IMG/VR virus record: IMGVR_UViG_3300031994_000025
Location: 32,001-96,000 of that record
DNA from: a virus
Taxonomy: Duplodnaviria > Caudoviricetes
Direction: 5' to 3' (one strand)
DNA length: 64,000 bases
The stretch's first letter is position 1. The number at the start of each line of letters is the position of its first letter. Position numbers and translations under genes: made by a program. Below the pieces are notes generated by a model. The model was not told the origin of the DNA. It made no database searches and worked only from the letters and a program-made list of their open reading frames with translations. Of this stretch, positions 4,805-60,836 are shown piece by piece.

Positions 4805-4996
4805 CACTGAGTTTTGACAACTATAACAAGAACGACCGCACTACGCGTTGTCAAGTCCTCAGTGCTGACTCCGGGGTGTTTCCACTACCCGACGCGGTTA
4901 CGGTCGATGTATTTAACCGACAATAGTATGGGCACAAAAAATGCCGCTGTTGATGCGGCCTGTTCGTCCGCACTGAGATTTGACAATGCAAAGATA
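4805..4996 (-). ncRNA. C4-antisense-like regulatory leader 1
   Basis: promoter TATCTTTG (4989-4996, minus); direct repeats at 4971-4986 and 4805-4820 with a complementary copy at 4848-4864. Confidence 0.65.
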
Positions 4997-15884: not shown

Positions 15885-16958
15885 ATGGCAACAAAGAGAA
15901 ACAACGGAGGCCAGCAGAAGAAGCGTGGCTTCCAGATGAACGACAAGCAGAAGGCGAAGTATGCCGAGTTATTTACTAATGCGCTCGACGCTATGGAGGA
16001 CGCACAGTGGACGAAGCCGTGGGTAGCGCCACGGCACATGGAGCCCGCGAACTATCAGCGCAGGAGCCGACCCTATCGAGGGATGAACAACTTCATCCTG
16101 ACCCTGCTGTGCGCTATCAAGGGGTGGGAGACACCGCTGTTCCTCACCTTTGAGCAACTTACCGACATGGGGCTATCGCTCAATATGATGACGGACGAGG
16201 AGGGCAATGTGGTGCTGAAGGACAACGGGATGCCGCTGTTCGAGGGCAGCTTTCCGGTGGTGAAGATGCTGCCTCACTTCTATAAGGACGGCAAGCGGCT
16301 CACACCAAAGGAGTATGACGAGCTGGACGAGGAGGAGCAGGAGAAGTGCCGCAAGTTCTTCAGCATGAGAGCCTGGCCGGAGTTCAACCTATCGCAGACG
16401 GACTTCAAGGCGAAGTTCCCCGAGAAGTGGGAGGAACTGACCAGTCTGCCTGAGCACGACTATCAGGCAGGCACCAAGGACGAGGTGCTGGAGCGGATGA
16501 TCATGCAGGGCGAGTGGCGCTGCAAGATTCTCTTCGGCGGTCATTCGTCGCACTACAGCCCCTCGGAGGACATCATCCGTCTGCCGGAGCGCAGCCACTT
16601 CCTCGGCGACCAGCTGTTCTATTCGACGGCTATTCACGAGATGGCGCACTCTACGGCGGGCGAACTGAAGCGTGACATGGGCTCTGAGGGCTTCGGCTCT
16701 GAGGGCTATGCCCGTGAGGAGTTCGTGGCTGAACTGACGGCGGCGTGCGTATGCTCGATGCTCGGCATCGGGCGACTGCTGGACGAACAGCATATTGCCT
16801 ACGTGCAGAACTGGCGGCAAGCTATCCGCGACGACAAGGACTTCATCCCGCAGGTCATCGACCATGTGCAGCGGGCCACGAACTACATCCTTCGCCGCTA
16901 CGACGAGGTGAATAAGGCTATGCACCCGCTGATGCTGCCTATGCCGATGGCGGCGTAG
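15885..16958 (+). CDS. ardC: ArdC-like antirestriction protein (ssDNA-binding domain plus zincin-like domain)
   Basis: W.KPW, Y.GMN...L, F.TF.Q, FN..QT, Y.PS.D.I.LP, HEMAH, YA.EE.VAEL, Y...W. Confidence 0.9.
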   Translation: MATKRNNGGQQKKRGFQMNDKQKAKYAELFTNALDAMEDAQWTKPWVAPRHMEPANYQRRSRPYRGMNNFILTLLCAIKGWETPLFLTFEQLTDMGLSLNMMTDEEGNVVLKDNGMPLFEGSFPVVKMLPHFYKDGKRLTPKEYDELDEEEQEKCRKFFSMRAWPEFNLSQTDFKAKFPEKWEELTSLPEHDYQAGTKDEVLERMIMQGEWRCKILFGGHSSHYSPSEDIIRLPERSHFLGDQLFYSTAIHEMAHSTAGELKRDMGSEGFGSEGYAREEFVAELTAACVCSMLGIGRLLDEQHIAYVQNWRQAIRDDKDFIPQVIDHVQRATNYILRRYDEVNKAMHPLMLPMPMAA

Positions 16959-29059: not shown

Positions 29060-29243
29060 ACACCGACCTTCGCTTGGCCTAAAAACCCGACCGAGGGTCG
29101 GCTTCTGAACGCCTATATCATACCGCTTCAAAACCGATATGATATATCACCTTGCAACTGCATTGAGAGATCACTTTGCAAGTGGATTGAGAGATCACTT
29201 TTCCAATCCCATTTTCCAACCCCAATTAAAACCCAACAAGATT

Positions 29244-30398
29244 ATGACACAGCAAGACTACATCCAGAAAGTAAACGCTGCCAAGCAGCACAGTTATAAC
29301 TACTACGTCCTCTCGGCCCCGACCATCAGCGACGCTGAGTTCGACCGCCTCGTGGACGCTATCGAGCAGACGGAGCGCGAGCACCCCGACTGGACGCTGC
29401 CCGACTCGCCGACGCAGCAGGTGGGCAGCGACCTCGGCGGCAACGGACGGCGCACTATACGCCACCGCACACCGATGCTCTCCTGCCAGAAGGCACAGGC
29501 CACGGAGAAGGTGACGGAATGGCTCGGAAAGATGAAGAAGAAAGTTGGCGGCGGTCTCTCGGCTATGCCCACATGGATGCTCTCATGGAAGGCCGACGGC
29601 ATCTCGTGCTCCCTCGTCTATCAGGACGGTCGGCTCATCGAGGCCAGCACACGAGGCGACGGCCCCACGGGGCAGGACCTGATACAGCACGTCAGGCTGA
29701 TGCACACCGTGCCGCAGACTATCAATGCCAGCGAAATGGCAGGGCGTGTGGAAGTGCGCGGCGAGATAGTATGTCCAAAGGCCAACCTCCAAGGGCTCCG
29801 CGACCAGAACGGCAAACAGTATGCCGACTGCCGAAGCGCAGCCAGCAGTCTGTGCAACCAGGTGACACCGAGCGCCGACATGGCACGGCTGGAGTTCTGG
29901 GCGTGGGACTGCATCGGCGACGACCTGAGCATGAGGTGGCAGGATCACACATGCTACACGCTGCAGAGGATAGGCTTTAAGACCTGCTACCACGAGACTG
30001 ACGACGGCACCCACATAGAGGCTATACTACAGCTGATGGCCGAGAAGCGCGACCTGCTGCTGATTCCCGTCGATGGCATCGTCATACGGCTGAACAGCAA
30101 CAAACAGTTCATCGAGCAGGGCTTCACCGACCACCACCCCAAGGGTTCGATAGCCTATAAGTTCCCGCCGCAGACCACCGTGACCACCGTGCGCCGCATC
30201 GAGATAACCGTGGGAGCCACAGGCCGCCGCACCCCGGTAGCCTGGTTCGACCCCGTGACCATCCTGGGCCGCACCATCGAAAAGGCCAGCCTGGGCAGCG
30301 AGGACACCATGCGCAAGCTCGGCGTCAGTGAAGGCGCAAGGGTGGAGGTGGGCCTGAGCAACGACGTGATACCGAAGGTGTACCGCGTGGTGGCGTAG
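29244..30398 (+). CDS. ligA: NAD-dependent DNA ligase, adenylation and OB domains only
   Basis: YY...P.ISDAEFD, PDSPTQ.VG, H..PMLS, KADG, TRGDG..G.D, EVRGE, DGIV, AYKF, VG.TGR.TPVA, DVIPK. Confidence 0.9.
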   Translation: MTQQDYIQKVNAAKQHSYNYYVLSAPTISDAEFDRLVDAIEQTEREHPDWTLPDSPTQQVGSDLGGNGRRTIRHRTPMLSCQKAQATEKVTEWLGKMKKKVGGGLSAMPTWMLSWKADGISCSLVYQDGRLIEASTRGDGPTGQDLIQHVRLMHTVPQTINASEMAGRVEVRGEIVCPKANLQGLRDQNGKQYADCRSAASSLCNQVTPSADMARLEFWAWDCIGDDLSMRWQDHTCYTLQRIGFKTCYHETDDGTHIEAILQLMAEKRDLLLIPVDGIVIRLNSNKQFIEQGFTDHHPKGSIAYKFPPQTTVTTVRRIEITVGATGRRTPVAWFDPVTILGRTIEKASLGSEDTMRKLGVSEGARVEVGLSNDVIPKVYRVVA

Positions 30399-58306: not shown

Positions 58307-58509
58307 ATTCGATTTATCAATGTTATCCTAAACAATCTTTTTACGCTACAAAGATAAGCATTTATTTTGCTTTTACCAAAATTTTGTGCATAAATTTCAT
58401 AAATATGCAAACAAGTTCTTGGTTGTCAAAAATTCAAGGCACAAAAATTGCACTATACAGGTATGTGTCAGCTCATTTTCCGATTATATCACCTAAAAAA
58501 ATCACAACT

Positions 58510-59688
58510 ATGCATAAGAAAATAAGATACAGACTTGTGTTCAATTATGGTGGCAGGCTCAACAAGGACGGGCGTGCGCCAGTTGCCGTGGAGGCACGTC
58601 AAGGCAATAAAAAGATTCACCTTTCGTCGGATGTGGTACTTTTCCCGCACCAGTGGGACAAAGGGAAAGTCGTCGCGCACGACAATGCCGACAAGCTGAC
58701 GGTCTGGCTTGTCAGATGGATGCACCAGATTGAGGACATCGAACTCGACTCACTTCTCAGTGGACGGCCCATGACACTGACCAATCTGAAAAATGCCGTA
58801 AGGTTAGGTACCCATTCATCCGCCACCATCGGGGAGTTTGTCAGCGCCGTCATTGACAACAGCATACGCTCCAATCATACCAAGGCGGCTTATCACACCC
58901 TTGCGCGTGAAGTCGATAAGCATGACAAGGCAGTCAAAATGAATGACATCAATCATGACTGGATAGAACGGTGGCGAGCCTCGATGCACTCCCAGGGTCT
59001 CAGCGACAACACCATTAAGGGACGGCTGAAGCAGCTGCACTGCCTAACGCAGGAGGCCATCAAGCGAGACATTCTGACAAGCGACCCGTTCAAGTGGATC
59101 ACAATCGGAAACATGACGCCCAGACACGAATATCTCACACAGACTGAAATCAGGAAGTTCGAGACGGCTCGGTTAACGGGAAAGGAAGCAAAGGTGCGTG
59201 ACCTGTTCATGTTGTCTGTATATACAGGCCTACGATGGGGCGACCTTATCACGCTGGACGAAGCCGACATTAGCGGCGGCATCTTGAAGAAACAGATGTG
59301 CAAGACTAAGCGTGACGTTATGATTCCTATCAAAACACTTTTCTGGGGAAAAGGTCAAAGAATAATTGACCGCTATCAACCTGTATCAAAACTATGCAAA
59401 TGCGTGAAGTGCAACTCTTCAGCCAACCGTATTATTCAGGACATCGCCCGACGTATAGGCATCAAGAAAAGCGTGCATTTCCATCTGGCGAGAAAAACTT
59501 GCTCGACAATGCTCAGTTCCCTCGGTCTCCCGACAGGAGATATTGCCACCATCCTTGGGCACGCAAAGACAGAAACAACCCAGAAGTATTACATCTTTGG
59601 CAAGGAAGAGTCAATGATTAAGTCTTCAGCGAAATTGTTCCGTCAACCAAACAAGAATCCAGAACATATTAGTGAAGATGATCATTGA
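58510..59688 (+). CDS. tyrosine recombinase (probable invertase for adjacent cassettes)
   Basis: TGLRWGD, HLARKT, LGH...TT..YY; Bacteroidetes-type arm and SAM-like N-terminal domains. Confidence 0.9.
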   Translation: MHKKIRYRLVFNYGGRLNKDGRAPVAVEARQGNKKIHLSSDVVLFPHQWDKGKVVAHDNADKLTVWLVRWMHQIEDIELDSLLSGRPMTLTNLKNAVRLGTHSSATIGEFVSAVIDNSIRSNHTKAAYHTLAREVDKHDKAVKMNDINHDWIERWRASMHSQGLSDNTIKGRLKQLHCLTQEAIKRDILTSDPFKWITIGNMTPRHEYLTQTEIRKFETARLTGKEAKVRDLFMLSVYTGLRWGDLITLDEADISGGILKKQMCKTKRDVMIPIKTLFWGKGQRIIDRYQPVSKLCKCVKCNSSANRIIQDIARRIGIKKSVHFHLARKTCSTMLSSLGLPTGDIATILGHAKTETTQKYYIFGKEESMIKSSAKLFRQPNKNPEHISEDDH

Positions 59689-59690
59689 TT

Positions 59691-59924
59691 CTGGGCGCAG
59701 ATGCAAATCTCAAATGCAAATATGTAGATAGTTTGAACGTGACAGAATCGGGCGCATACGCTATTGCCTGGAACCAAACAGAAGGTCTTTTTAGCGCTTC
59801 TGCATATTTCCTTGTATTTCAATATAACGGTTATGGAGCGCAACTTGCCATAGGGGCTAATGGCGAATTTTTTATTCGAAGAACAGACGGTGACTGGTAT
59901 AAAGTACAAACATCTAAAGTATAA
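59691..59924 (+). other. silent tail-tip cassette A
   Basis: frame opens at CTGGGCGCAG (LGA); no good start; ends W.K motif. Confidence 0.65.
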
Positions 59925-60030
59925 ATACAATATCGTGGGTGCAGGTATAAGTCTGCACCCACGAGTTCCATGCTGATGAGAATCCTGTTTTGTTGTGATT
60001 TGCTAATAAACAAGCATCTTTGCGATAGAA

Positions 60031-60303
60031 CTGGGCGCAGGTAAAAGCATTCCATTAAAATTAGTACCCTCTGGGACAAACTTCGATAACGTGATTGAAG
60101 GCGCATATCAAGTAGGTGCTTCCGATAATGTCAGCGGCCTTCCTATCAGTAATGCAGCATGTCTCGTATTCTGCCCTGTTTACGGGAATGGCTTTTGGAG
60201 GTTTCAGGTGTGTATATGCATGGCAAATAATCAAATCTATTTTCGCGGAGGCTATTCATCGTCATATAATGCATGGCAAAAACTGACAAGTACAGCAGTG
60301 TAA
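60031..60303 (+). other. silent tail-tip cassette B
   Basis: frame open from CTGGGCGCAG (LGAGKSIP...) to WQKLTSTAV*. Confidence 0.65.
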
Positions 60304-60407
60304 AGAGGTGAGATTTTGTTCTCACCCCTTTATAATGCTATCCATAAAGACCAACTTGTATTCTTTTTTATGCAATTATTGTTCCTTCTTCAACCCGCTT
60401 AGGAATA

Positions 60408-60836
60408 CTAAACAGTAGATGAACTTAATTCTTGCCATCCGTCATTTCGCCATGAGCCGGAAGAGTAATATGCATAACAAAAAAAGATCTTGCTACCGCA
60501 AAAAATTAATATATGTTTATAGTTATCTGAGCCGTACAACTTCATCACGATGATTCGGCAAGCGTGTGTTGTGGGCATTGTAGAGGGCTTGTTGGCAAGT
60601 GAGGCAGTAACCGTACCAGATGTTGACTGATAACATCCATGAGAGAGTGATAATACATTAGCCCCAGAAGATAATATCGCACCTTCTGGAATGCTCCCTA
60701 CGCCCAGAACTGATTGAAGATTGGCAATGGAGATGATACCGTTGGTGTTGCCATTCTTGGCATACACGTTTGTTGCTGTTGTCAAAGTGTTTCCGAATAC
60801 TATTGACAGTGCTGCTGTTAAAGTTGATACATTCAT
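60408..60836 (-). CDS. small tail-fibre/receptor-binding protein with switchable C-terminus
   Basis: CTGGGCGTAG (SVLGV) at 60707-60698; C-terminus G.Y...N.P...WQEL resembles cassettes A and B. Confidence 0.65.
   Translation of the reverse strand: MNVSTLTAALSIVFGNTLTTATNVYAKNGNTNGIISIANLQSVLGVGSIPEGAILSSGANVLSLSHGCYQSTSGTVTASLANKPSTMPTTHACRIIVMKLYGSDNYKHILIFCGSKIFFCYAYYSSGSWRNDGWQELSSSTV

Follow-up and report, generated by a model that had tools for sequence, protein, structure and literature searches.

How does a tail gene of a large phage come to lie beside two additional coding ends that have no start codon and face the opposite way, with a recombinase gene directly behind them? The question is raised by a 64,000-nucleotide stretch of viral DNA (hereafter the window), which comprises bases 32001-96000 of the 140,421-bp virus record IMGVR_UViG_3300031994_000025, rated complete. 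The gene concerned, here called the tip gene, ends a minus-strand block of structural genes and marks the 3' end of the tail gene cluster. An initial annotation of the window had described a tail-tip gene with three alternative C-termini that are exchanged by inversion. We arrive at a similar answer: the locus is probably a shufflon (a multiple-inversion system) in the last gene of the tail cluster, with swappable receptor-binding knobs.

Sites, cassettes and isomers of the tip gene

The tip gene (60836-60408, minus strand) encodes a protein of 142 aa. The initial annotation had located a short repeat inside this gene, read there as Leu-Gly-Val, and inverted copies of it at 59691 and 60031, each opening a start-less frame in the codon phase of the gene. 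Indeed, the window contains exactly three copies of CTGGGCGYAG, at 59691 (+), 60031 (+), and 60698-60707 (-); by shuffling, 0.29 copies are expected, and none of 100 shuffles contained three or more. The part of the gene that precedes the site (60836-60707) comprises 129 nt, that is, 43 codons, and the site starts at codon 44. At all three sites the triplets CTG GGC stand in the reading phase, and the two inverted sites open frames of 77 (B) and 90 (C) codons that lack a start codon, keep the phase of the tip gene and close with a stop. Together with the end of the tip gene itself (A), these frames form three cassettes. The encoded C-terminal domains show pairwise identities of 20-28% and share the initial Leu-Gly and a C-terminal motif W-x-(E/K)-(L/V), in agreement with their first description as similar domains ending in W.K/E. 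The repeat itself had to be redefined: the three in-phase copies stand, whereas the invariant site element is limited to the 7-mer CTGGGCG (the core) with a weakly conserved 5' flank, and the additional YAG is a part of the cassettes. Upstream of the site, the N-terminal motif F-G...G-x-I-x-x-A-N-L-x-S-V-L-G is kept in four lineages. Three short sites in both orientations at one locus, and a constant 5' part followed at the crossover site by in-frame alternative 3' exons, are features of a shufflon.

Use of the sites is visible in comparison with a metagenome contig of a related phage, L002. A profile of the cassettes retrieved the protein P0003 (131 aa), in which the Leu-Gly connects a related constant N-terminus with a C-type cassette. 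Its contig, L002, contains, in this order, the expressed N+C gene, an inverted cassette A, an inverted cassette of a fourth type (D), and a convergent tyrosine recombinase gene. Window positions 60031-60709 correspond to L002 8127-8802 with 96.6% identity and in the opposite orientation, and the N-terminal region is collinear with 76% identity (blastn). The flipped block, which consists of cassettes C and A and the spacer between them and forms a single invertible segment with two exons, is bounded exactly by the two cores; L002 expresses N+C, and A is silent there. Hence these sites are used. The base directly 3' of the core travels with the cassette (GTAG in A, GCAG in C), and the 5' flank does not move but remains attached to the surrounding DNA, which places the crossover inside the 7-mer. 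L002 thus provides a natural isomer of the locus, as seen between related phages rather than within the population of this phage. The two phages are 35% identical in the recombinase, 43% in a small membrane protein encoded directly upstream of the tip gene, and 39-87% in tail proteins, and the alignments suggest that the C-spacer-A block recently passed between phages via the sites.

Further isoforms are found among relatives. Searching with a profile of the constant N-terminus yielded 38 proteins. One related N-terminus (44 residues, with 1-2 positions differing) continues after the same Leu-Gly into no fewer than eight different C-termini, and three other N-terminal groups have two to four C-termini each. 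The same C-termini reappear as silent cassettes in L028 (nine sites) and L029 (at least five sites), in varied order and orientation, and include A-type and C-type cassettes 88-91% identical to those of the window. Cassette C, in particular, shares 90% identity with the expressed C-terminus of P0003 in L002 and 88% with one of the silent cassettes of L028. Many of the contigs with isoforms measure only 0.5-3 kb or break off within an array, which is what a population with mixed arrangements of this locus should produce. The proposal of the initial annotation that inversion swaps the tip on a constant N-terminus is therefore supported twice, by the block flipped at the cores in L002 and by N-termini that are joined to 2-8 C-termini.

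A switch of this kind may operate as follows. Transcription of the late operon would pass the small membrane-protein gene and continue into the tip gene, whose 43 constant residues probably dock the protein on the virion; the Leu-Gly from the crossover core and a single knob of ~90 aa would follow. The recombinase would pair the in-gene site with the inverted C site, and the 677-bp C-spacer-A segment would flip; alternatively, the in-gene site may pair with the B site, and all DNA between them would flip. Strand exchange within the 7-bp CTGGGCG, which is presumably the overlap region, would bring the other knob in frame, and further inversions among the resulting sites could produce the remaining permutations. 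Each cassette would contribute its own stop codon, with hairpins (60307-60326 and 59933-59964) placed after the cassettes. The most likely enzyme is the recombinase encoded 3 nt from the last site. Later virions would then bear a different receptor-binding tip.

Several observations weigh against a switching shufflon, and those that concern the enzyme and the fold are given with these subjects below. Bare CTGGGCG is present in 38 copies in the 140-kb genome, one of them inside the recombinase gene, and because of this number the case is carried by the comparative evidence and not by the repeat count. The window and L002 are different phages, with recombinases 35% identical, and not isomers of one phage; hence exchange between phages could account for the flipped block just as inversion within a single phage could. 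The window's own N-terminus was found in protein databases only in the N+A form, and no expressed counterpart of cassette B was found anywhere; the tip gene of the window is also present in run SRR9006654. Exact DNA patterns (the junction of N and core of this phage, and the conserved C/A spacer) gave no match in metagenome or viral contigs, and peptide-pattern scans of viral contigs with the tip protein, cassette C, and a 786-aa tail protein found nothing.

Both the exclusive N+A form and the orphan cassette B would suit a fossil locus, in which B and C would be remnants of genes and the genomes would differ because of rare past rearrangement or horizontal exchange, with no ongoing switching here. 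The C-A block, which looks recently transferred (96.6% identity vs. at most 76% in the flanks), would suit it as well. However, cassettes B and C stay open for 77 and 90 codons within an AT-rich stretch and retain an in-phase exact core, their own stops, hairpins, and the C-terminal motif of the family. In addition, the recombinase is intact, and sister lineages hold many permutations of the same cassettes. We consider a fossil locus very improbable; in the shufflon reading, this particular phage presumably still switches. The features of the locus are collected in Table 1.

Table 1. Features of the tip-gene locus, given in window positions
Feature	Position	Strand	Remarks
Tyrosine recombinase, 392 aa	58510-59688	+	Arm-type N-domain, SAM-like core-binding domain, catalytic domain; presumed shufflon invertase
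Recombination site sB	59686-59697	+	Core CTGGGCG at 59691-59697, 5-nt left flank; starts 3 nt past the recombinase stop codon
Silent cassette B	59691-59924	+	77 codons and stop, start-less; points opposite to the expressed gene; alignable with cassettes A and C
Hairpin, 12-bp stem	59933-59964		Directly after the stop of cassette B; terminator-like
Recombination site sC	60026-60037	+	Core at 60031-60037; left edge of the block inverted in L002
Silent cassette C	60031-60303	+	90 codons and stop, start-less; points opposite to the expressed gene
Spacer, 104 nt	60304-60407		Separates the convergent cassettes C and A; hairpin at 60307-60326
Cassette A	60408-60707	-	99 codons and stop; occupies the expression site; predicted knob fold
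Recombination site sN	60701-60712	-	Junction of constant part and cassette; plus-strand core CGCCCAG at 60701-60707; right edge of the block inverted in L002
Constant N-terminus of the tip gene	60708-60836	-	43 codons, ends ...ANLQSV before the core-encoded Leu-Gly; collinear with L002, 76% nucleotide identity
Small membrane protein, 92 aa	60872-61150	-	Directly upstream of the tip gene, same orientation; context, outside the switch

At the position of the small membrane protein, a gene of 91-103 aa is also present in L002, G003, L027, and L029. A copy of bare CTGGGCG at 59117-59123 (-), within the recombinase gene, lacks AT-rich DNA on its left side and is presumably unused. Outside the window, the complete record (G000) contains a fourth CTGGGCGTAG, at G000:114684, which was dismissed as a chance occurrence: it is antisense in another gene, no AT-rich stretch flanks it on the left, and no frame resembling a cassette follows it. 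A search of the rest of the genome with the cassette hidden Markov model returned no additional copies. Two inverted matches of 17-25 nt, 80-88% complementary (58393-58452 and 60353-60387), connect DNA upstream of the recombinase gene with the conserved C/A spacer; they could be chance matches in AT-rich DNA or accessory (arm-type) sites.

The adjacent recombinase and related arrays

The gene next to the array encodes a tyrosine recombinase, as had been annotated from the start. Its product matches the Pfam families PF00589 (8e-17), PF13102 (3.5e-11), and the arm-type domain PF17293 (8.6e-05), and the residues R230, K265, H325, R328, H351, and Y361 are invariant across five relatives. No other protein of the 140-kb genome matches PF00589, and serine recombinase PF00239 gave no match in it at E <= 0.1. 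Adjacency is a constant property of related loci: all 11 arrays whose far end lies on the contig (G000, G001, G003, L002, L018-L022, L027, and L028) adjoin a recombinase of this family. Three of these arrays, and two additional contigs represented by gene tables only, were reached via the tip protein and not via the recombinase, so adjacency there is no by-product of the search. Identity to the window recombinase is 73% in G001, 72% in L018, 57% in L019, 50% in G003, 34-36% in L020-L022, and 35% in L002; among isolated phages, the closest recombinase has 32% identity (tblastn). The recombinase stop codon is often 3-30 nt from the last site, and in the window it stands 3 nt before the cassette B site. 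Judging from this adjacency, from the intact catalytic residues, and from the absence of any other recombinase in the genome, the neighbouring recombinase is most likely the invertase.

The same gene can also be read as an integrase (or a Cre-like resolvase) acting elsewhere, with the inversions being real and a host-encoded invertase flipping the cassettes. Three of the unfavourable points mentioned above belong here: (i) PF17293, PF13102, and PF00589 together give the enzyme the integrase layout of the lambda Int / IntDOT type (arm-type, SAM-like core-binding, and catalytic domains), and it is the genome's only recombinase; (ii) neither an array nor a tip gene is present in the 65%-complete record of G002, whose recombinase is 72% identical to that of the window; and (iii) the core does not track the enzyme, as a clade with ~35% identity uses CTGGGCG, identical to the core of the window, whereas the 72%-identical L018 uses CTGGGAG. 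Moreover, the arm domain is clearly matched in L027, L002 has a second tyrosine recombinase 4 kb away, so that the roles may be divided either way, and a c4-2 RNA elsewhere in the window hints at a temperate, P1-like lifestyle. An enzyme devoted to another task, however, does not agree with a stop codon that, in many independent loci, comes within 3-30 nt of the last site, although the recombinases have diverged to 35% identity and the genes on their far side differ, nor with the presence of the recombinase at every array whose far end was seen. No tRNA was found in the window, and no host junction was seen in any long contig, without a dedicated att search; contigs of Prevotella metagenome-assembled genomes (MAGs) end inside arrays. 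To our knowledge, no phage tail-fibre switch depends on a host invertase. The mismatch between core and phylogeny, in turn, would fit the 7-mer being the overlap region, because the overlaps of two partner sites have to match, whereas the protein does not read them. A separate role of the neighbouring gene is thus rather unlikely, and we retain it as the candidate shufflon invertase.

Two observations on G002 may be added. In L013:7202-9832, its recombinase is followed downstream by a homologue of a 170-aa membrane protein of the window, a reverse transcriptase with a YVDD motif, and an Asn-rich C-terminal fragment. This region looks like a diversity-generating retroelement, another way of varying a target protein. 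A cluster of the 7-mer in G002 (L016) was considered as an array and rejected, as only short random frames follow the sites.

The related arrays differ greatly in size, with two sites in G003, three in the window and in L002, nine in L028, ten in L027, ~20 in L018, and 31 in G001. The G001 array (L015:1871-10268 = G001:C1:56371-64768), beside the 73%-identical recombinase, has its 31 CTGGGCG sites spread across 8.4 kb. Each site is followed by a frame of 55-105 codons, the mutual identity of the frames is at most 38%, and many of them stand head to head around spacers of 20-22 nt; the expressed gene (191 aa) is at the far end of the array. The site consensus of this array is A-T-Y-Y-T-CTGGGCG, with no conservation of the right arm. 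In L018:5523-11274 (Prevotellaceae MAG contig CACYKE010000066.1), ~20 cassettes lie beside the 72%-identical recombinase, with the core CTGGGAG, and the head-to-head sites are near-perfect palindromes CTCCCAG-N2-5-CTGGGAG. Hairpin repeats of L018 were rejected as candidate sites, being terminator-like elements; the true core is CTGGGAG. By comparison, the Rin shufflon has five cassettes (PMC6109161) and the BV01-like one has three (PMC13596623), far fewer than 31.

A wider picture can be offered only tentatively, and as a whole it is doubtful. These loci might represent a new shufflon family in large Prevotella-associated phages, with 2 to at least 31 single-domain knob cassettes for one expression site. 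The sites might also trade cassette blocks between co-infecting phages in an integron-like manner, and one integrase-type enzyme might perform integration or resolution as well as inversion. The idea of trade comes from the C-spacer-A block, which is 96.6% identical and has its edges at the sites in phages with 35%-identical recombinases.

Fold and genomic setting of the tip protein

The tip protein has no family in Pfam, PHROGs, or NCBIfam, and its assignment to the tail is derived from a predicted fold and from neighbouring genes; these are the remaining unfavourable points. A search of 1.8 billion representative proteins with the cassette profile found 312 proteins with this domain, many of them with several matched stretches. 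The ten best-scoring proteins, checked in Pfam, have two to six matched stretches each, and three of the ten also contain a GDSL esterase, GDPD, or phi29 head-fibre part.

AlphaFold2, given 61 aligned cassettes and single-domain relatives, produced a model of the tip protein with cassette A in which pLDDT is ~97 over residues 50-142 and 60-76 in the N-terminus. The best match of this model in the PDB is the R2 pyocin fibre knob (Z 10.6, rmsd 2.2, 84 aligned residues). The 13 top matches all are knobs of tail fibres, receptor-binding proteins, or tailspikes (Z 10.6-6.6, 73-91 aligned residues), among them R1 and R2 pyocin fibres, proteins of the phages P68, phi11, phi812, 80alpha, Pa193, and NF5, and Acinetobacter tailspikes; the first unrelated match has Z of only 5.4. 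Foldseek alone gave marginal E-values (4e-3), and a second aligner separated the matches clearly. The predicted structure is thus that of the compact beta domain of ~85-90 residues known from R-pyocins, P68, and phi11. Structure prediction, which the initial annotation had suggested as a check, therefore yields a knob fold for the N+A protein, and the tail-tip claim agrees both with this fold and with the position of the gene in the tail cluster. From the modelled fold and the neighbouring tail genes, a receptor-binding role at the tail tip is the best reading, and the tip presumably sits on the tail and sets host range.

The upstream genes match PHROG tail families, and the block also contains an Ig/MBG-domain protein. 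The composition of this block and of the cassette relatives leaves room for a different use of the same switch, with the switched protein being a head-fibre knob or another virion decoration, or a mucus or glycan adhesin, instead of a receptor-binding tail tip. An upstream protein of 472 aa matches phrog_215, an Ig-domain structural protein listed under head and packaging, the phi29 head-fibre part mentioned above occurs in one large protein together with the cassette domain, and the tip protein itself lacks an annotated family. These points have to be set against the 13 best structural matches, all on the side of tail fibres, receptor-binding proteins, and tailspikes, and against the tail PHROGs of the neighbouring genes. 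Moreover, the known phage inversions that swap C-termini all act on tail fibres (PMC6109161, PMC13596623). A decoration or adhesin therefore appears quite improbable, and the receptor-binding tail tip is preferred.

The host is likely Prevotella, because relatives of the recombinase are located on contigs binned with rumen Prevotella and Prevotellaceae genomes. A blastn search of the locus against isolated phages gave no match. Elsewhere in the window, the Rfam c4-2 RNA (RF02944) is found at 4830-4907 (-), just upstream of a minus-strand gene of 432 aa. The match scores 44.9 bits, more than the gathering score requires, and may point to an antisense immunity element as in P1 and to a temperate or carrier lifestyle. 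PHROG matches at window 29139-30398 (+), window 15885-16958 (+), and G000:137749-139296 (-) correspond to NAD-dependent DNA ligase, an anti-restriction-type protein, and nicotinamide phosphoribosyltransferase, respectively.

Significance and relation to known systems

Shufflons are a form of bet-hedging by phages against variable host surfaces. The capsules of Bacteroidales vary by inversion, and a switch on the phage side would be a direct counter-move. The system is a compact model for this interaction: with a tip protein of 142 aa in which a single, confidently modelled knob is exchanged, specificity could be mapped cassette by cassette. Relatives with ~20-31 mutually divergent knobs amount to a naturally occurring collection of receptor-binding modules directed at Prevotella of the rumen and gut, a genus for which we know of very few cultured phages.

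Tail-fibre shufflons with tyrosine recombinases have already been published, and what is new here is a phage lineage not yet described. One such system is the Rin shufflon of Bifidobacterium prophages (Mavrich et al., 2018; PMC6109161). As in the window, it is phage-encoded, with a constant N-terminus of a receptor-binding protein, start-less C-terminal cassettes in both orientations, short asymmetric crossover repeats (11 bp in Rin, ~12 bp here), and a tyrosine recombinase gene at the far end of the array. Unlike the recombinase described here, which has the arm-type domain PF17293 and is the sole one of its genome, Rin is XerD-like without an arm-type N-domain, and its prophage has a separate integrase. 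The sites are also different, TTCCCTAACCC for rix (PMC6109161) vs. ATYYT-CTGGGCG, as are the host phylum, the phage size, and the protein, which here has 142 aa and a single knob. Because of the arm domain and the different site, the locus falls outside the Rin family.

Another similar case is the tail-fibre shufflon of BV01-like phages of Phocaeicola vulgatus (2026 preprint, PMC13596623). Here too the host belongs to Bacteroidales, and three cassettes beside a recombinase overlap the distal end of a tail-fibre gene; the motifs are directional and 10 bp long. In that system, all configurations were seen in read data (PMC13596623). The differences are in the motif, which is TGGGAGAACT, and in the cassettes, described there as non-homologous and of differing lengths, whereas those of the window encode homologous knob domains. 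BV01 was not returned by the tblastn search of the recombinase against isolated phages.

On the structural side, the closest counterparts are knobs of R-pyocin and phage fibres (PDB 6ct8, 6cl6, 6iab, 5efv), which align with residues 49-142 of the model with Z 10.4-10.6 and rmsd 2.2-2.5 over 83-84 residues. Sequence identity is as low as 6-19%, and these proteins have the knob at the tip of a long trimeric shaft, in contrast to the mere 45 residues that precede it here.

The classical tail-fibre switches Gin, Cin, Pin, and Min (Mu, P1, e14, and p15B, respectively) resemble the locus in that C-termini of a tail fibre are chosen by inversion and the invertase gene adjoins the switch. They differ in the enzyme, being serine invertases that work with an enhancer and Fis, whereas no serine recombinase was found in this genome.

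Finally, the Rci shufflon of the IncI1 plasmid R64 serves a pilus adhesin and not a phage tail, and no sequence relation of the recombinase to Rci was detected. Rci avoids deletions between direct sites. A similar question of enzymology arises for the window: how an integrase-like tyrosine recombinase that uses a 7-bp core and one weak arm would stay local and avoid deletions between the direct sites of cassettes B and C. In its design, R64 has much in common with the tip-gene locus, namely a tyrosine recombinase, a 7-bp core with one conserved arm, segments with two convergent C-terminal exons (as in the C-spacer-A block), and a constant N-terminus (that of PilV in R64) joined to alternative C-termini, which in R64 set partner specificity. 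The likening of the locus to both R64 and Mu/P1, made in the initial annotation, is therefore apt.

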